DNA of 64,000 nucleotides from a phage, in NCBI GenBank assembly GCA_011939005.1, contig GCA_011939005.1_4858.1. The stretch is one strand, 5' to 3'. Under the pieces are notes generated by a model, which was not told the DNA's origin, ran no database searches, and saw only the letters and a list, made by a program, of their open reading frames with translations. The position numbers were made by a program, and so were the translations under genes. The first letter of the stretch is position 1, and every line of letters starts with the position of its first letter. Positions 1-41,934 of this stretch are shown piece by piece.

Positions 1-3000
1 GCCTGGAATAAACTGAATCAGTTCGGTGGCTGGGCGCGCGGTAAAATCGCGGGGATGGGCGGCGGAGAAGGTCCTGGTTTCTTAACCCGGATGCGTGGCC
101 TTATCAGCGGTAGTGTCCGTGGGGGCTTTGAAGCGGTAAGCTCTTTCGGTAAAGGATTGCTGGGTATCCGCGACGTTTACGATGACCACGGTAATGTTGT
201 ACTGCAAGGTGCACGTCTGGAAGCTGGAGAATACTATCAGGTCATTGATGGTAAAATGGTTCAGCTGAAAACGCTGGACGACATCAAACTGGGGAGTGAT
301 ATTGTTGACTCCGCAGGTAATCTGGTATTAGCAGCCGCTGACTTAGCCGCTGCGGGTAAACTCCGCTACTATAAAGGCGGGAAAATCCAAGCACTGACCC
401 AAGGTCTGGCCAGTAAGATTGGCTTAGGCTTTAATAAGGTGGCTAAGCTACCGAAACGGTTCCTGGATTTCCTGTCACCGAAAGCGGGCAGCATCGTTGG
501 TAAGATTAAGGACTGGCTGAACGAGATTCCGGAAGGCGAAGAAAAGACACGTCTCCAGAAAGCGTTCAACCGCGTAACGAGCTTACCGGGTAAAGTGCTC
601 GGTTTTGCGAAACGTGGTGTCGACCGTCTGAAAGACATGATTACCGACAACCCACTGACGCGTTGGTGGAAAGGCCGTAAAGATGGTGGGGGTGGTGGTT
701 TCAGTCTCTTCTCATCAACCGGCAAGAAAACCAACCACATCCTTATCCGTATCTATAAACTGTTGAACCAACGTTTACCGGGCGATCCGGAAGACGAAAG
801 TTGGACAGAAGAAATGGAGAAGGGTGTCGGTGGCGGTGGTAGTACGATCGGCCGTGCAGTTCGCGGGGCGTATAATCGTGCGAAATCGTCGTTGTCTGAA
901 CGTTTTGGTGGACGTTGGTCAAGAACAAAAGCGTTCTTTGGTCGTGGACGTGACCGCCTGCGTGGTTGGTTCAGTGGTTTCCGAGGCCGGGCTGGGGATA
1001 TGCTCGATGGATATCGTGGAGCACGACACGACATTGCTACACGTTACGAAGTTGAACGTCGGTTGGCTGGACGCGATGACGATGTTGCTGAGTTTTATCG
1101 CAGCCATTTGAACGCGAAAGGTGGTCTTTCTGGCCGTAAAGTCTACGGTGACGCGAAGGACGACCTTGAGACCGCGCGCGATGCAGCAGGTCGGGTTATC
1201 AACAAAGGGAAGAATGCTGCCAAGTCTGCAGGTGCAAGGTTATTCGAACGCTTGGACCGAATGATCGGCTTGCAAGAGATGTCATGGTTTAACACCATGC
1301 GCGAATCAGTATCCCGTGCAGGTGGTGACGATGGCATTATTCGTACCATGTTTGCGAAGTTCGGTAAACGTAACAAGCCACCTGAAAGTGATGAAAAACG
1401 CGACTACCTTAACTTCTTCAAACGTTGGCGTGAGAAACGTAAGGAGAAGAAAGAGAAAGCGCAGGGCTCCAAAGGGAAATCTGGCGGTCTGTGGGATATG
1501 GTGAAAGGCTTACCTATCATCGGTCCCATCGTCAGTATCTTGGGAACTGTGGGTAATATACTCGGTTCTATCACGAAATGGGGTGTGTTAAAACCAGTAG
1601 GTCTTTTAGGTAAGGCTGCGTGGAATGTCGGTAAGTTCGCAGTAACCCGTTTGGCGGCACCCGCGGTGTCCGCTGTGGCAACTGCGGCATCTGCCGTCGT
1701 GACAGCAGTGGGCTGGCCGGCAATTCTTATCGGTGGTGCGATCGCCGCGGCTGGTTACGCCGCGTACAGGATTGCAACGACTACCTATACCCAGTACCTG
1801 GATAAGATGCGTTTAGCTCAGTACGGTTTCCGTGATTACGATAAGTGGTCGTCGGACGACGGGGCGAAAGCGCGTTACTTAGAAGACGCATTGCGTGAGT
1901 ATGTGTCTTACGCGGAAGATGGCCAAGCCAGTCTCCGTGGGCTAAGTGGAAAAGACGTTCAGAAGTTAGCTGAAGGGTTCGGTATTAACGTTGAGGAAAA
2001 AGGCGAGATGTTGGCCTTCCAAGCGTTTATGCTTCAGCGCTTTATTCCGATTTATCTCCGCTGGATTACGGCACTGAAGTCAATGCCGAACAGTATCCAG
2101 TTGGCTGACGTCGGCGATGCGAAGAAAGTATCGAAAGAGGACATGCTGACTCTCTTCAACAAAATGAAGATGACTAAGGATGCAAAAGCGTTCTCTTCGT
2201 TAACAGACCCACGCAAAGTCAACCAAGGTTTCTTCTCGAAAGCTTGGGACGTTGTAACCTTTACACCGAAGGAGTTCTTGAGCGGTGAAGAGGTTATGGA
2301 AGTGCAGAATGAAGTCGAGCGTGCAATCAAGTCCAGAATGGACGATAAGAAAGCACGTAAGTACGGAATGGCACCGGCCGTGGAGGGGATTAAGTCCGCG
2401 GGCGTTGATGAAGCTATCAACAAACTTGGACAGTTGGATAACGAACGTAATAAAAATCTGGCGAAGGTAGAAGGTTGGGAAGACGGAACAGAGCAGGTTC
2501 AGATTCAGGTAGACTGGAATGCGGTGCTCGACCAGAAAGACATGAATGCGATGGAATCGGTGCGTTGGAAGACTTACGGCTTTACCACCATCGATAACGC
2601 CACCCGCACTTTGATCACGGTATTCGAGAAGAACGTCATCAAAGACATTGACGTGAAAACCGCAAGCTACAAAGGAGATTGGAAGAAAGCCATCGCCACG
2701 ATGGTTCCAGACGCTATCGGTACACCGAAAGAAGATCGTTTGAAACGGTGGTTCTTTGACCGTTTCTTACCGGTATTCATGACGTATTTGGTTGGGGTGA
2801 AGCGTTACCTGCCAACAGCCGATCCGCTGAACTTGAAACTGACCGGCGGCTACCTGTACGAAATCAGTCTGATGATGTCAACTGCCTACAGCCTGAAAGG
2901 TGGTATAAGACAGTCGGTGTGGGAAGTGAATATCAACCCATTAGGGGGTGAGGCTAACACGAACCCATCATCCATCAAAGCCGAACTGGAAACGCTGAAG

Positions 3001-4578
3001 CTGCTGTCAAAAGAAGCTGACCTTGCCGTGCGTAACATGATTAAAGCCATTAGAAATAATGGCAAGCGTGCGCGCTGGAAGGATCGTAACAAGAACCGCA
3101 GTTCTCTGGAAGTTACCGGTGAGGATGAAGAAGACTCGAACATCAGTTCGGGAGATTCTTTGTCATCTGACGGTGCTCGCGCCTCAGGCTACATTCCATC
3201 GGGTACGAGTGGTGGTGTGCCGGGTAACTTGGGTCAAGTCGTCGATGCGGTTGGTGGTGTGCGGAACTACGCTGCAATGACCACTGGTTCGTCTTCGATT
3301 AACCTGAGTGATGTGAAAGACGGTGATTATAAGTCACTGGCTGAAAAATACCCGATAGAAATGTTGGGTAGAAAGGGTGCGTTGAACGTTCCGAATATCA
3401 AAGCATTGATTACCGATGCGGCGAACATGATGGGCGTGCCACCTGCAGTGGCGTTAGCAATGGCTAAGGCGGAGTCCGGATTTAACTACACCGCTAAAAA
3501 CCCGTATGCTTCGGCGTCTGGGCTGTTCCAGTTCATTGACGGCACGTGGAACGGGATGATGAAGGGGTATTCGCGGAAGTTTGGTATTCCGCGTGTTAAC
3601 CAAATGGACCCGTGGGCGAATGCTATATTGGGTGTACAGTTCATTCGTGACAACATCCAACAAGCACAGCGTGACCTGGGTGGTAAAGCACCACCTCCAG
3701 CCGTGGCTTATCTGTACCACTTCTTGGGTGCAGGCGGCGGTAAGAAGTTCTTGGAAGCATGGAAGCGTAATCCGAATATGGCGGCATCGAGTGCTCCTGG
3801 GATTACATCTGCAATACTGAGAGGGAATGCCAACGTCTTCTACAGCAACGGTCGTATACGTAGCGTAGACGGGGTTATTCAGGAACTGAACCGCCGTATG
3901 GGCGCAATTTCCGCCAACGAAGTCGCTGCCGATCCGAGTAAGACGAAGGATATGGTTGCAGGCTTGTCGCCTAATTCACCAACCAACCCGGCAGCAGCAA
4001 TGGGTGCACCGGCCGCTAATGATCCGAGTCTGTCGCCAGCAGATAACCTGCCAGCAGATAATGCTAATCGTCGTGATGACGCATTGACGCAGAAAGGGGC
4101 CATGGCGGCACAAGATGCAATGGCTACCGCCGCAGGTAATGTAGGACCAGCAGCACCTACACCAACCACAGGCGGTACCGGAACATCCGATGCCTCAACA
4201 ACGGCCGAAACCGTAGCGTCGCAAGCTGCAGCAGAAGGATTGTCTGCGACGGATGTTGCTAAAGTGAAAGCAGGCGCGGAAGCGCAGGTTAACGCAGCAG
4301 CTCGTCCAGTTGCCGCTCCAACTTCTGATGCTACAGCATCGACGCCAACGCTGAATGGTGACCCGATGGATGTTCAGCAGCTCAAGGTACTGATTCAGTC
4401 TCGCGATTACTTGAAAGAGATTCGTGATATTTTGAAATCAAATCCGAGAGCAGCAAACGACACGCGTGGTGGTAGTATCCAGCAAGCGGCAAATGTGGCT
4501 CCTCCGGGCTCAGCTGCACGTAGGCAGGAAATAACCCAACCGACACCGTCGTTAAACGTAAGTCGGAAAGCAAGCTAA
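1..4578 (+). CDS. virion tape-measure-like / ejection protein with lytic transglycosylase (SLT) domain; 5' partial
   Basis: Frame 1 is open from base 1 (first in-window ATG at 55) to TAA at 4576-4578. Gly-rich linkers, hydrophobic helices (about nt 1510-1770), SLT motif ESGFN..AKNPYASASGLFQF..DGTW (about nt 3440-3560), Ala/Pro/Thr-rich linker near the C-terminus. Confidence 0.65.
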   Translation, partial: AWNKLNQFGGWARGKIAGMGGGEGPGFLTRMRGLISGSVRGGFEAVSSFGKGLLGIRDVYDDHGNVVLQGARLEAGEYYQVIDGKMVQLKTLDDIKLGSDIVDSAGNLVLAAADLAAAGKLRYYKGGKIQALTQGLASKIGLGFNKVAKLPKRFLDFLSPKAGSIVGKIKDWLNEIPEGEEKTRLQKAFNRVTSLPGKVLGFAKRGVDRLKDMITDNPLTRWWKGRKDGGGGGFSLFSSTGKKTNHILIRIYKLLNQRLPGDPEDESWTEEMEKGVGGGGSTIGRAVRGAYNRAKSSLSERFGGRWSRTKAFFGRGRDRLRGWFSGFRGRAGDMLDGYRGARHDIATRYEVERRLAGRDDDVAEFYRSHLNAKGGLSGRKVYGDAKDDLETARDAAGRVINKGKNAAKSAGARLFERLDRMIGLQEMSWFNTMRESVSRAGGDDGIIRTMFAKFGKRNKPPESDEKRDYLNFFKRWREKRKEKKEKAQGSKGKSGGLWDMVKGLPIIGPIVSILGTVGNILGSITKWGVLKPVGLLGKAAWNVGKFAVTRLAAPAVSAVATAASAVVTAVGWPAILIGGAIAAAGYAAYRIATTTYTQYLDKMRLAQYGFRDYDKWSSDDGAKARYLEDALREYVSYAEDGQASLRGLSGKDVQKLAEGFGINVEEKGEMLAFQAFMLQRFIPIYLRWITALKSMPNSIQLADVGDAKKVSKEDMLTLFNKMKMTKDAKAFSSLTDPRKVNQGFFSKAWDVVTFTPKEFLSGEEVMEVQNEVERAIKSRMDDKKARKYGMAPAVEGIKSAGVDEAINKLGQLDNERNKNLAKVEGWEDGTEQVQIQVDWNAVLDQKDMNAMESVRWKTYGFTTIDNATRTLITVFEKNVIKDIDVKTASYKGDWKKAIATMVPDAIGTPKEDRLKRWFFDRFLPVFMTYLVGVKRYLPTADPLNLKLTGGYLYEISLMMSTAYSLKGGIRQSVWEVNINPLGGEANTNPSSIKAELETLKLLSKEADLAVRNMIKAIRNNGKRARWKDRNKNRSSLEVTGEDEEDSNISSGDSLSSDGARASGYIPSGTSGGVPGNLGQVVDAVGGVRNYAAMTTGSSSINLSDVKDGDYKSLAEKYPIEMLGRKGALNVPNIKALITDAANMMGVPPAVALAMAKAESGFNYTAKNPYASASGLFQFIDGTWNGMMKGYSRKFGIPRVNQMDPWANAILGVQFIRDNIQQAQRDLGGKAPPPAVAYLYHFLGAGGGKKFLEAWKRNPNMAASSAPGITSAILRGNANVFYSNGRIRSVDGVIQELNRRMGAISANEVAADPSKTKDMVAGLSPNSPTNPAAAMGAPAANDPSLSPADNLPADNANRRDDALTQKGAMAAQDAMATAAGNVGPAAPTPTTGGTGTSDASTTAETVASQAAAEGLSATDVAKVKAGAEAQVNAAARPVAAPTSDATASTPTLNGDPMDVQQLKVLIQSRDYLKEIRDILKSNPRAANDTRGGSIQQAANVAPPGSAARRQEITQPTPSLNVSRKAS

Positions 4579-29769: not shown

Positions 29770-30249
29770 TCATTGCACAAGGCAACTACTTTTGTGCCGT
29801 TCGTAGGCACGATTAAAAGACTCTCTGTCTTCGCGATAGCCGCGAATGAGAGACTTAATCTGTCGTGACAAATCACGACTAATGTCTTGAGGGCTACGAG
29901 AACCAGGGTCGAGATATATCCCGGAGGGTATACCATGAAGAGTGGGGCGAATAAACTCTTCACAAAGCGGTGCGGTCATCGGGGTGTGCCACCCTTTAGC
30001 TTCTGCATAGTTGTTTACTGACTTAGCGTACAGATAAACGTAATAAGCATAAGCGTTCACATCCGCAACAAACATTTTCCCTGCCAGCTTTTTCGCCTCA
30101 GGACTGTTCCCACCGTTATATACTGGTGGGTGTTCTAAAGGACGAAAAGGCCAATCTCCGGTTGAGGAGTAATCTGGGTCTACGTGACGGATGACCCCAG
30201 GGCATCCTGTCAACAATAGCACCAGTATCGCCACCAAAAATAACTTCAT
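29770..30249 (-). CDS. putative lipoprotein
   Basis: 159 aa; N-terminus MKLFLVAILVLLLTGC has signal peptide with lipobox LTGC; ATG with RBS gaggag overlapping end of upstream gene. Confidence 0.55.
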   Translation of the reverse strand: MKLFLVAILVLLLTGCPGVIRHVDPDYSSTGDWPFRPLEHPPVYNGGNSPEAKKLAGKMFVADVNAYAYYVYLYAKSVNNYAEAKGWHTPMTAPLCEEFIRPTLHGIPSGIYLDPGSRSPQDISRDLSRQIKSLIRGYREDRESFNRAYERHKSSCLVQ

Positions 30250-30258
30250 GTATGCTCC

Positions 30259-30768
30259 TCATGGATTATTAAGCGTCTTGATAATCTCCTGTCGGAAATC
30301 GTTTGCCGCCTGCGACCCCACTGGGCGAGAAGCCGCCTGGTGTTTCTTGGCAGGCGGGCTAGACGGATTTAACGGTGCCTGTGGTGTTACCGGCTTGAGT
30401 TCTTCAGGCGGAACCGCGGCCCCAGTGCCTGTCCCTGTTGGAGATTTGGTACCATCATATGGCGATCGAGAACCCAGGCATGTGAAGAGACGATCGTACA
30501 GCTTATTGTTCTCCACTTCGCCATGATCGGACTTCTCTTTTAGCTCCTTATAGGATATCTCCAGATACTGAGTACGCGATTGGACGCTAACCAGTGTGTG
30601 GTATTGAACAATATAGGCATATGAGACAAATGCAGAGAACGCGACCAGTGCCACTATCACTAGTGTCACTATCTTCCCGGCTCGTGTTACTTTCTCCCCC
30701 TCGCCCGGTTTAAATGCTTCCCACAGCATCTGTAAGAATGGAAGCAGTTTGAAAACTGATGCTATCAT
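30259..30768 (-). CDS. membrane protein with Pro-rich C-terminal region
   Basis: Track start 30774 is GTG; ATG at 30768 has RBS gaggtg. Transmembrane segment IVTLVIVALVAFSAFVSYAYIV, then Pro-rich tail. Confidence 0.5.
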   Translation of the reverse strand: MIASVFKLLPFLQMLWEAFKPGEGEKVTRAGKIVTLVIVALVAFSAFVSYAYIVQYHTLVSVQSRTQYLEISYKELKEKSDHGEVENNKLYDRLFTCLGSRSPYDGTKSPTGTGTGAAVPPEELKPVTPQAPLNPSSPPAKKHQAASRPVGSQAANDFRQEIIKTLNNP

Positions 30769-30792
30769 GCTCACCTCGGAGAGTTTTTAATT

Positions 30793-34057: not shown

Positions 34058-34288
34058 CTAGTTACGGTCGGAATTAAAGACGTGCCAGGTACTACGCCAG
34101 CGAAAGAATCGGGTCATGAAACCACGCACGTGGTAGCCTGAGAACAACATCCAGATGGCAAGAAAGAGTTGCGCCCATGGGGACGTGAGTTCCATCAGAT
34201 GTGCGACAATCGCACCGATTACCAACATTACCGTGGAGAATAGCAAACCGTACATCATCGGAATGTTGTGGCTATAGCGTTTCTCCAT
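34058..34288 (-). CDS. small two-helix membrane protein (holin-like topology)
   Basis: Two hydrophobic helices (GLLFSTVMLVIGAIVAHL; WAQLFLAIWMLFSGY) and basic C-terminus. Track start 34324 is GTG; first ATG at 34288; start uncertain. Confidence 0.4.
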   Translation of the reverse strand: MEKRYSHNIPMMYGLLFSTVMLVIGAIVAHLMELTSPWAQLFLAIWMLFSGYHVRGFMTRFFRWRSTWHVFNSDRN

Positions 34289-34334
34289 CCAGTAGAGAAA
34301 ATTTATTAAACGTTTCACGAGCACACATCCAAGA

Positions 34335-34375: not shown

Positions 34376-34969
34376 TTACGCTTCGGCCTCAAAGAACGGC
34401 TGGTTCGGTACCACTGCATATTCGAGCACGAAAAGATGTTCTGGGGCATCTTCTGCTCGCCACAGTTTGTGACACGTTGCCAGTTTTTCCAGGATGGTCA
34501 ACCAGCTGAGCTGGCAGAAAGCACGGTCGCCGAAGAACAGTTTCTGCAGTGCAATCGACACATCCATATACGCCTGTTTGAAGTCGAGTTCTTTATCGTA
34601 ACCCGCCGACTGTCGCCACGTCAGCACGAAACCTGCTTCGGTTTCGTTAATTGCTGGACGTAAACCACAAATCCACATCAGCGCCAGATTAACGTTCCAG
34701 TCGAATTCGATACCTTCGTCTTCGTCATCACCAAACGCCGCGTTTAACGCATCGTAGAAACCGTGGTTCTCTGCGAACCATTCGCCATACTCAACGTATA
34801 CCGGTGCTTCGACAGCTTCCCCATCGACTTCACCGATAGGACGCTCTACATAGTTCGGGTTGGTTTGAACGTGTTCCGCACCCGCGCGAATTAATTCGTA
34901 GACATCTTTGGCGGTGATTTGTGCGGCTGTTTTAAGACCTGGATACCAGGGGCGTGTTACGAGTGTCAA
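34376..34969 (-). CDS. hypothetical protein (apparent TTG start)
   Basis: 197 aa; no in-frame ATG/GTG near the 5' end; TTG at 34969 has strong RBS aaggag and overlaps upstream stop by 4 nt. Confidence 0.5.
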   Translation of the reverse strand: MTLVTRPWYPGLKTAAQITAKDVYELIRAGAEHVQTNPNYVERPIGEVDGEAVEAPVYVEYGEWFAENHGFYDALNAAFGDDEDEGIEFDWNVNLALMWICGLRPAINETEAGFVLTWRQSAGYDKELDFKQAYMDVSIALQKLFFGDRAFCQLSWLTILEKLATCHKLWRAEDAPEHLFVLEYAVVPNQPFFEAEA

Positions 34970-35688
34970 AGCAATGCTCCTTTCATGATAGTGTTATTTG
35001 CCAGTAGTGTACCGGCCGCAGGTGATATTTTGGTGTACAGCGTATCCCAGATTTTCTGAAGCTCAGCGACGCGTTGGTCGCGGTCTTCCTTCGCAAAAGC
35101 AAGCTGACGTGTTTCAGCTTTCGGTGGCGTCATTTTCGCACCGTAGAATGCTGCGTCTTTTCGGTAGCTGGCCATCCAGCGTTTCCCGACCGATGATTTC
35201 TTTTTAATCATCGCAACAGCAGCGCTCTCACCGAAGCGGTAGCCTAATGCGATTTCGGCTGTGCTCGGCTTGCGTTTGAGTTGTTTTGTCAGATGATCCT
35301 CGATGTGTTTCATGTAAACAGCAGCAAGCTGTACAGCATATTTCGGTTTATTAAGGTCTGCGTTCTTTGGGATGTTAAGTTGTTTCCCATACAGACGTAT
35401 CATGGAGCGTTTAGTGCCTGTCGTCATTTGGACAACACTACTAGCACTGCTCGATTTATTCTTACCCACGTTTTTATTAAAACGGGATTCGCGGTAAATG
35501 GTGGTCGCAAGCATCCCGGCATGTACACCTTGCTTTTGAGATGCAGAGACGATGAGAGGTTTAATCTCATTGAACTGGTCCTGGATAAGGACGAATTCTT
35601 TTTGGTGTTTGTTACTGGTGGTCTGGTAAGAAGCGTTGCTGTTGAATGTGGTCACTGCTACCAGAAGAAATAAAATGGTGCGAAACAT
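34966..35688 (-). CDS. secreted lytic transglycosylase-like protein (candidate endolysin)
   Basis: 240 aa; N-terminal signal peptide MFRTILFLLVAVTTFNSNA; ESRFNKNVGKNKSSSASSVVQMTTGT aligns with the SLT motif of the large virion protein at 1-4578. Confidence 0.55.
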   Translation of the reverse strand: MFRTILFLLVAVTTFNSNASYQTTSNKHQKEFVLIQDQFNEIKPLIVSASQKQGVHAGMLATTIYRESRFNKNVGKNKSSSASSVVQMTTGTKRSMIRLYGKQLNIPKNADLNKPKYAVQLAAVYMKHIEDHLTKQLKRKPSTAEIALGYRFGESAAVAMIKKKSSVGKRWMASYRKDAAFYGAKMTPPKAETRQLAFAKEDRDQRVAELQKIWDTLYTKISPAAGTLLANNTIMKGALL

Positions 35689-35779: not shown

Positions 35780-35791
35780 GATAATATCTAT
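35780..35791. promoter_or_regulatory. conserved motif GATAATATCTAT (third copy)
   Basis: Exact 12-mer also at 26688-26699; overlaps the stop codon of the gene at 35788-36288 and lies upstream of the secreted SLT gene. Confidence 0.35.
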
Positions 35792-36288
35792 TTGAAACTT
35801 TTTGGGATGATTTTCTCTGCTTCCCTCAGCAGGGTGTCCGGTAAATAGAATCGATAAGTCTGCTCCGTGTGCTGTAGTCTTTTCTGTAAGTGTATAAAGA
35901 TTTCCAATCGCTCATGGTAACGTAACCAACCGTTAGCCATCCCTAGGGGCGGTATCGCAATCCCTCCTTCTAAGTCTTCCCCTAGTCGCGCCAGCGCATC
36001 AATGCCGGACGTGACATAGTAAATCTGCGATTTATAGCGAAAATGGGTTTTAGTAGGAAGGAGTATTACCCCTTCCTCAGGATAACAATAGACCTCACCG
36101 ATAACGATTTGCTCTTTACGACATTTCTGGCGATAGTCATTATAAAGCGATGGGAAGCGTTCTCGGCACGCCAAAGCAATGCCCCTTCCCATTGCACCAA
36201 CACAGTTAACTGTAACGACCTTGAAGCGCTCAGGCGCGTTAAACAGGTCGTGGGAGATAATAGCCTCGTCGATCAGTTCTAGTGACAT
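35788..36288 (-). CDS. putative macro-domain (ADP-ribose-binding/processing) protein
   Basis: 166 aa; VVTVNCVGAMGRGIALACRER resembles the macro N-terminal Gly-rich motif and IAIPPLGMANGWL resembles the C-terminal phosphate-binding loop. Motif-level only. Confidence 0.45.
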   Translation of the reverse strand: MSLELIDEAIISHDLFNAPERFKVVTVNCVGAMGRGIALACRERFPSLYNDYRQKCRKEQIVIGEVYCYPEEGVILLPTKTHFRYKSQIYYVTSGIDALARLGEDLEGGIAIPPLGMANGWLRYHERLEIFIHLQKRLQHTEQTYRFYLPDTLLREAEKIIPKSFK

Positions 36289-37723: not shown

Positions 37724-38212
37724 CTATGCTACCGCAGTCCTTAAAGGTTCATCTGCTTCCGCAGGAACCTGCTTCGTAAATTCAAGCCATTGTCCGTCGG
37801 TAGAGACTGTCTTGTCAAAACCGCGAGCGGTAAAGAACGCAATACCAGCTTCCTGGCAAGCGTATATTCCCCCATGCGCATTGGTGAACTGTTCGTTCAC
37901 TTCAAGCGCATCAAAAATCTGCGTCATCGTTTTACGACGGCGTGCCATTTCAGACACGAACATCGTACGAATCTTCAGAACCCCAGCGATTACGCGATAC
38001 AAACAGTAACCAACAGGGGTACCCCCTTCCAGAGCAACACAAGCACGGTTCCCCGCCAACAGTTTCTCCAGAGTGAGGTTCGGAATCTCACCTTTTTCGA
38101 TATGGAGTATGGTACGTTGGTGGTTCAGAAATTTATAATGCAGCCCCAACAGCTGTTTATTTTGTGCTTCCGTTAAATCTGAAGATGAGGAAAGAATGAC
38201 AATTTCGGCCAT
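37724..38212 (-). CDS. hypothetical protein
   Basis: Track start 38239 is GTG without RBS; ATG at 38212 has RBS agga. Confidence 0.5.
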   Translation of the reverse strand: MAEIVILSSSSDLTEAQNKQLLGLHYKFLNHQRTILHIEKGEIPNLTLEKLLAGNRACVALEGGTPVGYCLYRVIAGVLKIRTMFVSEMARRRKTMTQIFDALEVNEQFTNAHGGIYACQEAGIAFFTARGFDKTVSTDGQWLEFTKQVPAEADEPLRTAVA

Positions 38213-38655
38213 GAGCTGAATTCCTAAGTGAGCTTTCACCTGCGATGAAAGCGAGTAACGAAGAATTGCGTTTGTGTTTTCTTAAGTTTACCGGTAAAGC
38301 TTAGCGGTGTATACCGCTGCAGGTAAAGACCAGTTCTCTATCGGAACCGTGTCTTTGATCAACAACGTCGTTGAAAACGCTGCGATGCTGAGGTAACCTT
38401 CCGTCGCCACATTCGCTCATGGCGCTTCTGATTACCACGCCAGTCTTCCCCGACTGTACGTGAAACTGCAAAATCATCCGGCCCGCAGACTTCCGCGATG
38501 TCTGCTAGAAGGTTCTTTGAAGACCCTATAGCCATCCCCGCGCTCGAAAGAACGATACGCCGGGTTGACACGGCCGCCCCTGAACCCACGACCACGGGAT
38601 CAGAGACTGTTTCACTGTTACATGATACTTCTCCCACTTCGTAATTACCCTCCTG

Positions 38656-38763
38656 TTAAAACCAACCTTGCATCAATGCAAGGATTGCGCCTAGGGCGTA
38701 TGCGCCCGCTCCTAGTATCAGGCTACAGACGATACACCCAACCCTTTTCACTAAAATAACCAT
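38656..38763 (-). CDS. tiny hydrophobic peptide (35 aa)
   Basis: Hand-translated MVILVKRVGCIVCSLILGAGAYALGAILALMQGWF; below ORF-track size cutoff; overlaps next tiny ORF (ATG inside the upstream stop region). Confidence 0.3.
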   Translation of the reverse strand: MVILVKRVGCIVCSLILGAGAYALGAILALMQGWF

Positions 38764-38882
38764 GTTGCTACAAACGCTCCGATTGCGCAAATGATAAGCG
38801 TGATACCAACATCTGTCCATGTGGCACCGTCATACGCACCTGTTGCAATCATGGCTGCGTTGACACTATTCACGACTGTCAT
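38751..38882 (-). CDS. tiny hydrophobic peptide (43 aa)
   Basis: Hand-translated MTVVNSVNAAMIATGAYDGATWTDVGITLIICAIGAFVATWLF; below ORF-track size cutoff. Confidence 0.3.
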   Translation of the reverse strand: MTVVNSVNAAMIATGAYDGATWTDVGITLIICAIGAFVATWLF

Positions 38883-39069
38883 AAGCCGGGTCCCTTAAAC
38901 GCGGGGGCTTGCTCCACAGATTACCGAAGTAAACCCCTTCTAAGAACACCAAAACAACTAAGCCCCAAAAGGCAGGCGTAGCGCGAGACATGAAAATACC
39001 GAGTAGCACCACAGTGTGCATTACCACAACTGCCCAAAACTTTAAACGACCAGGTTTACGTCTTGCCAT
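38866..39069 (-). CDS. small membrane protein
   Basis: Track start 39114 is GTG; ATG at 39069 has RBS aaggatgg. Two hydrophobic helices. Confidence 0.4.
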   Translation of the reverse strand: MARRKPGRLKFWAVVVMHTVVLLGIFMSRATPAFWGLVVLVFLEGVYFGNLWSKPPRLRDPAYDSRE

Positions 39070-39156
39070 GGAATGCCCATCCTTTCGTGCGGATAATCCA
39101 ACCCCAGGCACCACGAATCAACCACAGTGCAATACCGGTTAATACGATACCTTCAA

Positions 39157-39348
39157 TCATGTCCGTTCTCCTATATCTCGCCACTCACAACGCGTGTCGA
39201 ACAGACGTTCTTTAAGAGCAGCAGCTAAATAAACGACCGCAGCGATAACCACTACGGTTGCACAAAAGGAGAGGTACAGTACCATCACAACAAACTGAAG
39301 GAACTGAAAACCCCACCAAGCCCATAAGCGCCAACCTTTATGATGCAT
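39157..39348 (-). CDS. small membrane protein
   Basis: 63 aa, Trp-rich N-terminus and one hydrophobic helix (VVMVLYLSFCATVVVIAAVVYLAAAL); start overlaps the stop of the Rad50-like gene. Confidence 0.45.
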   Translation of the reverse strand: MHHKGWRLWAWWGFQFLQFVVMVLYLSFCATVVVIAAVVYLAAALKERLFDTRCEWRDIGERT

Positions 39349-41848
39349 ATTTGATTATTACCCCTTCGTTATACACCGGTGGAAGCGTTACACCTTCTGG
39401 TTCCACGACACAGTAGGTGGCTTCGTTAAGTTTAGAATGAACTTCCGCTTCATGCGAAACGACCAGCAATTGAGAAAACTCTCCCGACAACGCCAACGAT
39501 TTAATGAAGTTAACTAATCGGTTTTTGTGTTCTTCATCCATGCCTTCAGATGGTTCATCCAATAACAAAGGATAATTTTGTAAACCAAGTGCTTTATACG
39601 CCGTTAAACGAAACATCATGTTGAAAATGATACGCTGTGCTTTTGAACCTTTCTTCACGTCAGGCACCAGTTCTTCATGGTCTTTTAATCGCACTGGGAA
39701 TGTATAATCCAAATCCCCGTCGGTTAGATCGCATGGAATAACCTGCATCGGATATGCCCACACCATTTCGATATACCGATTCATTAAATCCATGATGCGG
39801 GTAATCGCAGCATAAAAGTAACGACGCAATAATCCTTTTTCGGGTGAGACGGCATTGATAATCAATCTGGCATGATGGTGTTCTTTGAGCAACTCAGCTT
39901 GCTCTTTTTCCAGTTCCGCTAAACGTGCAATAGCCCCTTCCATTTGACGAAACCGTTCACGAGCTGAAGTATACGCATCGAGCTTCGCTTCGCGTCGGTT
40001 TAACAACTCGCGAACCACGACGTTGTTAACGGAGATGTTCATTTCCGATACCAGATGTTCGTAGCCCTTTTGGAAACGTTCGATTGCTTCTTTGGTTTGT
40101 TGCAGTTGGGTGGTTTCGCGTTCCAGCTCATTGGCTTGTCTGCGGTATTCTATCAGTCGTCGGTTAGCCCCGTCCAGTTGTGAACGGATATGTTCAATTT
40201 TCTGGCTCAGCGCACCATCAACGTTACCTACTGCAGCAACAGCCTCTTGCCATTCCCGTTCCGCTGTTGCAAGCTTCGCCGATTGACGCAGATACATCAT
40301 GGCCGAATCTAACTCTTCAGTAAAGGCACGTGCAATGGCACCGTAACGATCCCGCGCCGTGGTGAAGATATCCAGCTCCTGCAGTTTACGGAAAAACAAA
40401 CCGATAACGGGATGATTGGAATACGACATGACGATTTCGCGAATCGTACGTAAGCTACGGACGTCCTCTTCAATCTCTTTGCGGTCACGCAAAAGACTAT
40501 CCATTTCGTCTTTCAGCTGTTTTTTCCAACCTTCATTATCGTTGATGGCCTTTTCAATTTCAGGTAACGACTTACGAATCCCAGGACGGAAACGGTGGTT
40601 ACACTGTGGACAATCAACTTCTGCAGTTTCTAAGAAGTGTTGACGGTCGTGGTATAAACCGTGTAGCACATTCTCACAACGTTGCAACTTTTCAGATAGA
40701 CCCGCAGAGGTTAAATCCATACCCTGTAAACGCTTCTCTAACGCTCCCAGGCGCTCTGTTGTCTTTAACTGGTCCAGATGCATGGACAACGGTAAATTCC
40801 AGTTACAGGCGTCGTTTAACGCGTTCTGAATGCTATCCACGTCGATGCGGGTACCTTCAAACAGAGCCGGGAACATCCAGTTCTGTTGGAATGTTGCCAG
40901 TTCCTGTTTTAAGCTGTCGATTGTTTGTTTTAGACCGGTATGGTTGCGCATCAGATACGCTTGACGCGACTCCTCATCCAGTAGCTGTGACAACTCTTTA
41001 TTGTACATGTTGCATTCAGTTTCAGCAGAGGCAGCTTGCTCGCGCCAGGCAACCACACGACTTTGAAACTCGTTAATCAGTTCGTCAGAAGGCAGAACGC
41101 CATAACGTTCCATAATGAGTTTTACAGCCGGTTGCAACGAAGCAATGCGTTTCCGGATACTATCAACCGAAACGGCGTTATCTAAACCGGGTCTCGCTTC
41201 AATGGTGCGGTTTAGTTCCTGAAGCTCAACGTCCAGTTCTTTCAAACGAACTTCCAAACGTGCACGATCTTCTTCATCGTCAACGACGCGCATTTTTGCT
41301 TCGCCGATTTTTCGTCCGGTGTGCTCAATGGCCCCACTTAAACTGGAAGCGAGTTTACGCAGACGACGATAACAACCAACAACGTACGTCAGATCAGATT
41401 CTGACATTAACGTAAACCATTTACGACGAACTTCAGTGGTGGCGTCTGTTAATAAGGTCTCACCATTAATTAACTCTTTGATTTCTTTGGTGATTCCGGT
41501 TAATTGCTCCACCATGGAGTTGTAAACTTTAGCGTTTACTGAATCTACGATGGAAACACCTTTAGTGATGTTGAAGATACTACAAGACAAAGAAGACCCA
41601 CGTCGCAGGACTTCAAACTTAAGACGGTCGTCCCCAACTAACGCGTAGTTAGTGTAGGAACCACCTTCACGGAATTCTGATTTTGCTGGAGCTAAGGGGA
41701 GAAAAACAGATAGGAGGCTTGTTTTACCGCAGCCGTTGCCACCGAGGATGATGGTAACGGTTGACTTAAGGGTGAAATCAAACGTTTCGATTTCATGTAA
41801 CCCCATGCCGGTAAATCCTTTCAAAATGATACGTTCGACCTTGAGCAT
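39338..41848 (-). CDS. Rad50/SbcC-family ABC-type ATPase with coiled coil and zinc hook
   Basis: 836 aa; Walker A ILGGNGCGKTS; long Glu/Leu/Arg-rich central region; CxxC hook DCPQC; C-terminal Walker B LLLDEPSEGMD and H-loop VVSHEAE. Confidence 0.8.
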   Translation of the reverse strand: MLKVERIILKGFTGMGLHEIETFDFTLKSTVTIILGGNGCGKTSLLSVFLPLAPAKSEFREGGSYTNYALVGDDRLKFEVLRRGSSLSCSIFNITKGVSIVDSVNAKVYNSMVEQLTGITKEIKELINGETLLTDATTEVRRKWFTLMSESDLTYVVGCYRRLRKLASSLSGAIEHTGRKIGEAKMRVVDDEEDRARLEVRLKELDVELQELNRTIEARPGLDNAVSVDSIRKRIASLQPAVKLIMERYGVLPSDELINEFQSRVVAWREQAASAETECNMYNKELSQLLDEESRQAYLMRNHTGLKQTIDSLKQELATFQQNWMFPALFEGTRIDVDSIQNALNDACNWNLPLSMHLDQLKTTERLGALEKRLQGMDLTSAGLSEKLQRCENVLHGLYHDRQHFLETAEVDCPQCNHRFRPGIRKSLPEIEKAINDNEGWKKQLKDEMDSLLRDRKEIEEDVRSLRTIREIVMSYSNHPVIGLFFRKLQELDIFTTARDRYGAIARAFTEELDSAMMYLRQSAKLATAEREWQEAVAAVGNVDGALSQKIEHIRSQLDGANRRLIEYRRQANELERETTQLQQTKEAIERFQKGYEHLVSEMNISVNNVVVRELLNRREAKLDAYTSARERFRQMEGAIARLAELEKEQAELLKEHHHARLIINAVSPEKGLLRRYFYAAITRIMDLMNRYIEMVWAYPMQVIPCDLTDGDLDYTFPVRLKDHEELVPDVKKGSKAQRIIFNMMFRLTAYKALGLQNYPLLLDEPSEGMDEEHKNRLVNFIKSLALSGEFSQLLVVSHEAEVHSKLNEATYCVVEPEGVTLPPVYNEGVIIKYAS

Positions 41849-41901
41849 GTTTGCCTTCTAATGAGAAAGTATTAGTCGTTCATATCCAAAAGGTCATGCG
41901 T

Positions 41902-41934
41902 AAAAAAGAAGAAATGGAACCCCGAAGGGTTCCA
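41902..41934 (-). terminator. rho-independent terminator
   Basis: Stem tggaaccc / gggttcca with loop cgaa; A-rich run 41901-41914. Confidence 0.55.

Follow-up and report, generated by a model that had tools for sequence, protein, structure and literature searches.

What is encoded directly behind the SbcC-like gene of an SPN3US-like jumbo phage, and what would the products do in the infected cell? These questions are raised by a 64,000-nucleotide (nt) stretch of phage DNA (contig GCA_011939005.1_4858.1 of assembly GCA_011939005.1, hereafter the window), in which a chain of very small open reading frames (ORFs) for hydrophobic proteins occupies the minus strand at 38656-39348. The first-pass annotation of this stretch had proposed four such ORFs, of 63, 67, 43 and 35 amino acids (aa), and had offered a holin/antiholin set, immunity proteins or membrane toxins as their function. 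The sizes, the strand and the place of these ORFs were found to be right, but the count of four was not, because an ORF of 34 aa between the first two had been missed. As judged by comparison with related genomes, the five ORFs, here called A to E, are almost certainly real protein-coding genes for inner-membrane microproteins of 34-67 aa. The general reading of them as real small phage membrane proteins is thus supported, and none of the three functions proposed for them could be shown.

By nucleotide comparison the window is that of a SPN3US-like jumbo Salmonella phage of the genus Seoulvirus: the region 37700-42000 matches jumbo phages of the SPN3US group over its full length with 96-98% identity, including Escherichia phage EC001, the SPFM phages and SPN3US. 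Several SPFM records, such as SPFM5-SPFM15, match the window only in many short pieces, 23-40 per locus, suggesting that these deposited sequences hold many small indels or errors. The gene upstream of the chain, an SMC ATPase of 836 aa (39338-41848, minus strand), is SbcC/Rad50-like as first described (phrog_77, expect value (E)=9e-96, with weak SMC_N/AAA matches in Pfam). It is 99.6% identical to the EC001 protein and orthologous to SPN3US gp186, which is essential in SPN3US by amber genetics (PMC5105663).

The chain runs A-B-C-D-E, head-to-tail on the minus strand and directly behind the SbcC-like gene, and all of its members overlap. The ATG of ORF-A (63 aa; 39157-39348) precedes the stop of the SbcC-like gene (39338-39340), giving an overlap of 11 nt, and is followed by ORF-B (34 aa, MIEGIVLTGIALWLIRGAWGWIIRTKGWAFHGKT; 39056-39160), ORF-C (67 aa; 38866-39069), ORF-D (43 aa; 38751-38882) and ORF-E (35 aa; 38656-38763), with overlaps of 4 nt for A/B (ATGA), 14 nt for B/C, 17 nt for C/D and 13 nt for D/E. 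Such a layout, with overlaps of 4-17 nt head-to-tail behind SbcC, would favour translational coupling. Recognisable Shine–Dalgarno sequences stand before B (AGGAG, 7 nt upstream), C and D; those of A and E are weak or distant, and these two genes probably depend on coupling to the preceding gene. A sixth small gene, ORF-F (92 aa, GTG start; 38359-38637, minus strand), starts 18 nt past E with a strong AGGAGG ribosome-binding site and is the last of the small-gene block. The overlap of stop and start between SbcC and A had been reported correctly, but the position had also been called unusual, and it is instead a conserved feature of the clade, which Thomas et al. 2016 had noted for gp187, the SPN3US counterpart of A.

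To set a chance baseline, all 232 ATG-initiated ORFs of 30-80 aa in the six frames of the whole window were collected, and a 17-residue Kyte-Doolittle score of at least 2.0 was reached in only 4.7% of them. On the same scale A, C, D and E score 2.3-2.7, and B, which has an Arg or Lys within its hydrophobic stretch, reaches 1.56 at 17 residues and 2.09 at 15. Hydropathy and, for A and C, helices modelled with AlphaFold2 agree with the earlier description of the 63-, 67-, 43- and 35-aa products as hydrophobic proteins with one or two helices. Moreover, substitutions relative to Salmonella phage SPAsTU and Erwinia phage pEa_SNUABM_29 (∼74-76% nucleotide identity) are enriched at third codon positions, with counts at positions 1/2/3 of 4/3/15 for B, 9/5/24 for D and 19/7/33 for C. 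Ratios of nonsynonymous to synonymous substitution rates (dN/dS) were calculated by the Nei-Gojobori method, and as synonymous sites are near saturation these ratios, which span 0.06-0.55, are approximate: 0.25-0.28 for A, 0.06-0.12 for B within Seoulvirus and 0.29-0.44 against Erskinevirus, 0.16-0.35 for C, 0.12 for D and 0.27-0.55 for E. The reading frames are therefore conserved in related phages, by the third-position enrichment, by dN/dS and by the motif at the end of E, which is kept through synonymous codons.

That motif, G-A-(I/V)-x-A-L-T-Q-G-W-F at the C-terminus of E, is kept in 12 genomes of four genera, while the codons for Gly, Ala, Leu, Thr, Gln and Phe and the stop codon vary between genomes. 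In the window, E also contains a terminator-like hairpin at 38683-38666, and a conserved hairpin was considered as the explanation of the conserved end of E; it was rejected, because the codons vary synonymously and the hairpin is unconserved across relatives when the peptide motif is kept, so that the hairpin is not the conserved feature. Thus, to explain the five ORFs as chance frames or annotation artefacts in a non-coding spacer is hardly credible. GenBank records do disagree, annotating from none to all five of A-E, the Shine–Dalgarno sequence of E is weak and its hairpin looks like a terminator, but the codon-position pattern, dN/dS below 1, the conservation of the frames across four genera and the E peptide, conserved where the hairpin is not, effectively refute this explanation, and each of A-E is annotated in at least one GenBank record. 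Other small candidates in the same region, namely a longer 54-aa form of E and two alternative-frame ORFs (37 aa inside A and 36 aa inside D/E), were unconserved between the window and SPN3US and were discarded.

The five products differ in their predicted form. ORF-A (SPN3US gp187, RefSeq ACQ60_gp079; phrog_16515, E=3e-29) has a basic N-terminus, a hydrophobic stretch of 36-40 residues and a charged tail with a conserved R-C-E-W-R. AlphaFold2, run on the single sequence, gave one long helix over residues 4-62 with a predicted local distance difference test score (pLDDT) of 87; by this model A may be one long helix, and a two-helix hairpin is also possible. ORF-B (phrog_13448, E=6e-9), between A and C, is the most conserved of the five, being by tblastn 100% identical in 21 genomes and going down to 59% in Erskinevirus, and has one predicted transmembrane helix with a basic tail that is conserved as W-x-W-I-I-(R/K)-x-K-G-W-A-F. 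ORF-C (RefSeq gp078; phrog_18173, E=4e-40) has a strongly basic N-terminus, a two-helix hairpin (residues 7-30 and 32-52 in the AlphaFold2 model) and a conserved tail, PP(R/L)LRDPAYD. The EC001 homologue of C carries a 1-nt indel, ends in ...PPAFKGPGL at 63 aa and has lost the RDPAYD tail, which is either a real variant or a sequencing error. ORF-D (RefSeq gp077; phrog_29196, E=2e-29) starts with an uncharged to acidic segment of 19-24 residues, followed by one transmembrane helix that reaches the C-terminus, and ORF-E, with no PHROG match, has an N-terminus bearing Lys/Arg, one helix rich in small residues and the QGWF end. Topologies were predicted by the positive-inside rule from hydropathy and the single-sequence AlphaFold2 models. 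By these predictions both ends of C would be cytoplasmic, as would those of A if it forms a hairpin; for B the basic tail would lie inside and the N-terminus outside, and for E the N-terminus would lie inside, with the conserved C-terminus facing the periplasm. No paralogy was detectable among the five families (hhalign probabilities ≤5%). ORF-F (phrog_15402, E=7e-12) is not hydrophobic; it carries a conserved motif, GEDWRGNQxxHER, and a basic tail, is kept in four genera and usually co-occurs with E.

A, C and D correspond to SPN3US gp187-189, annotated as hypothetical proteins, with 95-100% protein identity to the phages of the SPN3US group. B is unannotated in the SPN3US RefSeq record and annotated in SPLA3 and SPAsTU; for E, an annotation exists in some records only, EC001 and SPAsTU among them. 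F is called as a 92-aa gene in public assemblies and unannotated in the SPN3US RefSeq record, which at this place has, in a different frame, a 40-aa ORF (gp076), apparently a mis-annotation.

How far the arrangement extends was assessed across relatives. The order SbcC, small membrane ORFs, F-like gene and GNAT acetyltransferase is found in four named genera, Seoulvirus (SPN3US, EC001, SPAsTU and pEa_SNUABM_29), Erskinevirus (Asesino and phiEaH2), Machinavirus (Huxley, pSal-SNUABM-04, Caitlin and ChrisDB) and Wellingtonvirus (Kwan and pEa_SNUABM_11), and in uncultured genomes of IMG/VR. In the resulting presence/absence matrix, whose profiles were built largely from the same sequences as were scored, only a first-position hydrophobic protein (37-66 aa) and B are universal, being present in every SPN3US-like lineage examined, and in all four genera the start of the first gene overlaps the SbcC stop or falls within a few nucleotides of it. 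Seoulvirus, Erskinevirus and the uncultured L022 lineage have a type A gene in first position, and Machinavirus and Wellingtonvirus have another type, A2; homology between A and A2 was not detectable (hhalign probability 2%), while SbcC in these genera is still ∼50% identical. C is missing from Wellingtonvirus, from L027 and from the L022 lineage, and a clean deletion has removed it from pEa_SNUABM_29. D is restricted to Seoulvirus and the L022 lineage, which comprises the IMG/VR contigs L022, L023, L024 and L036 (107-225 kilobases (kb), three of them 220-225 kb), with a SbcC 58% identical to that of the window. This lineage lacks E and F; of the cluster only A, B and D are left, and the acetyltransferase gene comes directly next. 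Wellingtonvirus (Kwan, pEa_SNUABM_11), by comparison, has three extra genes in the cluster, which encode a 128-aa HEAVH (HExxH-like) protein with a basic tail (phrog_1365, of unknown function), inserted between the homologues of A2 and B, and membrane proteins of 32 and 101 aa. CR5-type phages have different small membrane proteins after SbcC, and the extra genes of the Wellingtonvirus and CR5 clusters belong to no known family. No small membrane cluster follows SbcC in SL2 (phiKZ-like), PA1C, RSL2, PS2 or pTD1. Between the window and SPAsTU, A is 51% identical and SbcC 74.5%. Several of the cluster-bearing genera infect the same host, Erwinia amylovora.

Upstream of SbcC, the gene before it ends in an intrinsic terminator, TGGAACCC-TTCG-GGGTTCCA with a T-run (41915-41934, minus strand), which forms the 5' boundary of the SbcC unit; the TTCG-loop hairpin before SbcC was recovered in terminator scans of Asesino and Huxley and is visible in the upstream sequences of other genera. 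It is followed by a promoter-like element, TTTTTAC-N15-TATG (41881-41906, minus strand), the putative start of the operon, which is conserved upstream of SbcC in Seoulvirus, Erskinevirus, Machinavirus and Wellingtonvirus; strict matches to it number only two in the window, that of SbcC included. Middle promoters of phiKZ consist of AAanTTACc at about −24, some also with TATG at +1, and late promoters of TATG alone (PMC4666361). The spacing of the SbcC element thus resembles the middle-class layout of phiKZ and not the late class, and it may define a middle-promoter class of SPN3US-like phages. On the minus strand past SbcC, no comparable strong terminator was found until 34371-34348, and hence the putative unit would extend over ∼7.5 kb from SbcC through A-F, a GNAT acetyltransferase gene (37724-38239, minus strand), four small to mid-sized genes, a macro-domain protein gene (35788-36288, minus strand) and a lytic transglycosylase gene to that of a 197-aa protein. 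Between F and the acetyltransferase gene, just past the F stop, lies a stem-loop without a T-run, AGCGGT-ATAC-ACCGCT (38303-38318, minus strand); the equivalent stems in SPAsTU and pEa29 show paired changes from CGGT/ACCG to CAGT/ACTG, which suggest a conserved RNA structure. No RNA family was found by an Rfam scan of the whole window.

Database searches gave families for A-D and no function. The PHROG matches of A-D cover nearly the whole protein and profile, and all four families are of unknown function; A-E had nothing above threshold in Pfam and no match of the lysis category among PHROGs up to E of 0.1, nor any homologue in Pfam or PHROGs among superinfection-exclusion proteins, small regulators or toxins. 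Searches by tblastn with the small proteins returned clade-restricted matches only, and with E only close relatives, where the low-complexity filter probably masks part of the short hydrophobic query. A search of 5.8 billion proteins with A and F gave near-identical proteins only, and one of 1.84 billion representative proteins with C gave 4 matches and no new gene context; all of these matches stay within the same clade. In the literature, Thomas et al. 2016 noted the transmembrane segment of gp187 and its place after SbcC (PMC5105663); the supplements of PMC7411985 contain no proteomic or genetic evidence on gp187-189, no SPN3US amber mutants are listed in these genes, and such proteins go unmentioned in the literature on the early-infection vesicle and the phage nucleus. 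No earlier description of the five-gene chain, of its purifying selection or of its between-genus content was found in the literature; the chain with F, the selection, the pattern of core and variable genes, the promoter and terminator framing and the lysis-gene map given below are new.

For the function of the chain we can offer only a tentative proposal, which we favour as possible and would not call probable: A-E may be a clade-specific accessory envelope module of coupled inner-membrane microproteins, made with SbcC in mid-infection. A-E would be transcribed together with SbcC from the phiKZ-middle-like promoter element, and their products, jointly synthesised in mid-infection, would enter the inner membrane of the host, perhaps in a mixed complex. 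There the module would change the host envelope, the likeliest outcomes being exclusion of superinfecting or competing phages, or tuning of the envelope or of lysis timing; it would not act as the primary holin and would not be needed for SbcC chemistry. This proposal is drawn from the membrane location, the coupled synthesis, the non-late promoter type, the fast evolution and gene turnover, and the separate, better-placed lysis genes; moreover, with several genera on one host, Erwinia amylovora, competition between phages would be favoured. T4 Imm and Sp are small inner-membrane superinfection-exclusion proteins of a large lytic phage, and they are the analogy that we favour, as A-E would likewise be small phage inner-membrane proteins that are not late, accessory and fast-evolving; however, no homology to A-E was found in Pfam or PHROGs, and the analogy is by inference. 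Several points weigh against the proposal. No homology in Pfam or PHROGs links A-E to exclusion, lysis timing or any other function; the timing of expression is deduced solely from the resemblance of one motif to those of phiKZ, and the second strict match of that motif in the window is probably a ribosome-binding site with a start codon; complex formation is deduced only from gene overlap and co-occurrence; and the putative unit shared with a secreted transglycosylase leaves room for a role in lysis.

The last of these points requires the lysis genes of the window to be located. The only non-virion muralytic gene is that of the lytic transglycosylase (34966-35688, minus strand), whose N-terminal Sec-type signal peptide (MFRTILFLLVAVTTFNSNA/S) looks cleavable and thus implies an exported endolysin. 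Its catalytic domain resembles that of the phiKZ endolysin gp144 (tblastn 2e-10, with a gp144 sequence as query), and it has the signal peptide where phiKZ gp144 has a peptidoglycan-binding domain. A stronger match to the same domain (tblastn 5e-18, also with a KZ144 query) lies at the C-terminus of a 1507-aa protein on the plus strand (55-4578), which is presumably a virion-associated cell-wall-degrading protein. A two-component spanin pair, annotated merely as hypothetical in SPLA3, is formed by an i-spanin of 171 aa (30259-30774, minus strand), homologous to CR5_183 (tblastn 2e-20), and an o-spanin, a lipoprotein of 159 aa with the lipobox LLTGC (29770-30249, minus strand); the i-spanin of CR5 was curated in the supplement of Kongari et al. 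2018. A-E themselves are too short for spanins and have no conserved lipobox cysteine. Finally, a gene that starts 24 nt past the strong terminator at 34371-34348 (34058-34324, minus strand) encodes a protein of 88 aa that has a basic tail and two transmembrane helices and is by position the best holin candidate; sequence matches to this protein are limited to Seoulvirus (SPAsTU and pEa29, 39-41% identity), and many records leave it unannotated. Downstream of the cluster, the transglycosylase gene is thus reached after six genes and ∼3 kb, the spanin genes after ∼8 kb, and the spanins and the holin candidate together span 4-9 kb from it. In phiKZ, by comparison, a single compact lysis cassette contains the genes for holin gp142, regulator gp143, endolysin gp144 and spanins gp141/141.1 (PMC12894885); the genome of the window resembles this phage in having an endolysin, here with a signal peptide, and two-component spanins.

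It could then be supposed that some of A-E control lysis as a holin, pinholin and antiholin set, which depolarises the membrane or times this event and so activates the Sec-exported transglycosylase. C, and possibly A, has the small two-helix format of class II holins and pinholins such as phage 21 S68; with a signal peptide on the transglycosylase a large-hole holin would be unnecessary; no strong terminator separates the cluster from the transglycosylase gene; and Seoulvirus genomes carry no annotated holin. Holins are extremely diverse in sequence, which makes the lack of homology weak counter-evidence. The alternative thus draws on the shared putative unit, the two-helix form of C (possibly A) and the absence of an annotated holin, and yet we consider it unlikely. 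A-E match no holin family in Pfam or PHROGs; the cluster is adjacent neither to the endolysin gene nor to the spanin genes at 29770-30774, the distances being those given above; the 88-aa two-helix protein with its basic tail at 34058-34324 is better placed; the promoter-like element is of the middle and not the late type; and A and C end in tails of nearly neutral charge, not in strongly basic ones. In Aeromonas phage PS2, SbcC is followed by a signal-peptide transglycosylase with no small membrane ORFs between them. The phiKZ holin lies inside its compact cassette beside the endolysin gene and, as a one-helix class III protein with a large cytoplasmic domain, is unlike A-E. Furthermore, five coupled microproteins would exceed any holin/antiholin set described to our knowledge. 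The holin/antiholin option of the first-pass annotation is therefore weakened by the family searches, the gene distances, the phiKZ cassette layout, the 88-aa candidate and the middle-type element, and A-E are probably not the main holin genes of the phage.

Another possibility, that the SbcC/SbcD nuclease is anchored in the inner membrane by A, possibly helped by B, follows a suggestion of Thomas et al. 2016 for gp187, by analogy with T4 gp47.1 and gp46/47; gp47.1, a protein of 46 aa with one helix, is encoded beside the SbcCD homologues gp46/gp47 and is their proposed membrane anchor (PMC5105663). As in T4, a tiny membrane protein is encoded beside a phage gene for a Rad50/Mre11-type nuclease; besides this precedent, in all SPN3US-like lineages the start of the first gene overlaps the SbcC stop or lies right beside it, and CR5 too has a two-helix protein straight after SbcC. 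However, SbcD of SPN3US-type phages (gp27) is encoded far from SbcC, and here five microproteins in a chain are the neighbours. Sequence change has been much faster in A than in SbcC (51% against 74.5% identity, as above), and A is swapped for the non-homologous A2 in Machinavirus and Wellingtonvirus, where SbcC is still conserved; SbcC of phiKZ-type phages, RSL2, PS2 and pTD1 has no such neighbour; and C, D, E and F would be left unexplained. These phages, as is established for Chimalliviridae, replicate their DNA within a protein-walled nucleus away from the membrane. Because A is replaced by a non-homologue, distant relatives lack the cluster and DNA replication is nuclear, this explanation is weakened to the point of being very unlikely. 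Alternatively, each microprotein might on its own bind and inhibit a defence effector bound to the membrane or an inner-membrane protein of the host; candidates include transporters, division or cell-wall enzymes and sensor kinases, and the mode of action would be that of bacterial small regulatory membrane proteins or small hydrophobic toxins. The five families are mutually unrelated, their conserved motifs are predicted on different sides of the membrane, and lineages differ by the gain or loss of single genes, all of which would fit independent effectors; we nonetheless find this doubtful, as the gene order is conserved and the overlaps are tight, E and F tend to co-occur, which suggests a joint function, and no homology to a known small regulator or toxin was found. 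At the other extreme, A-E might be one coupled multi-subunit inner-membrane complex, specific to SPN3US-like phages, that controls membrane events peculiar to these nucleus-forming phages, for example by blocking the early-infection membrane vesicle of a second phage, which would be a new kind of superinfection exclusion, or by holding the SbcCD nuclease at a site outside the phage nucleus, where it would destroy the DNA of the host or of a rival; we regard this as quite unlikely.

No part of giant-phage genomes is less well understood than the small membrane proteins, which annotation often overlooks, and the SPN3US reference, which lacks B, E and F, gains a corrected annotation from the present analysis. 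The analysis further yields five conserved microprotein genes, for which starts are defined, topologies predicted and conserved motifs given; this set is testable in SPN3US, where amber genetics exists. A clearer lysis map is also obtained for this group of phages, with the spanins, the signal-peptide transglycosylase and the 88-aa holin candidate. If A-E have no role of the kinds discussed above, they remain ordinary accessory hypothetical genes; if an accessory envelope module or one of its alternatives proves true, and these proteins control superinfection, lysis timing or nuclease placement, they would be a new piece of the biology of nucleus-forming phages.

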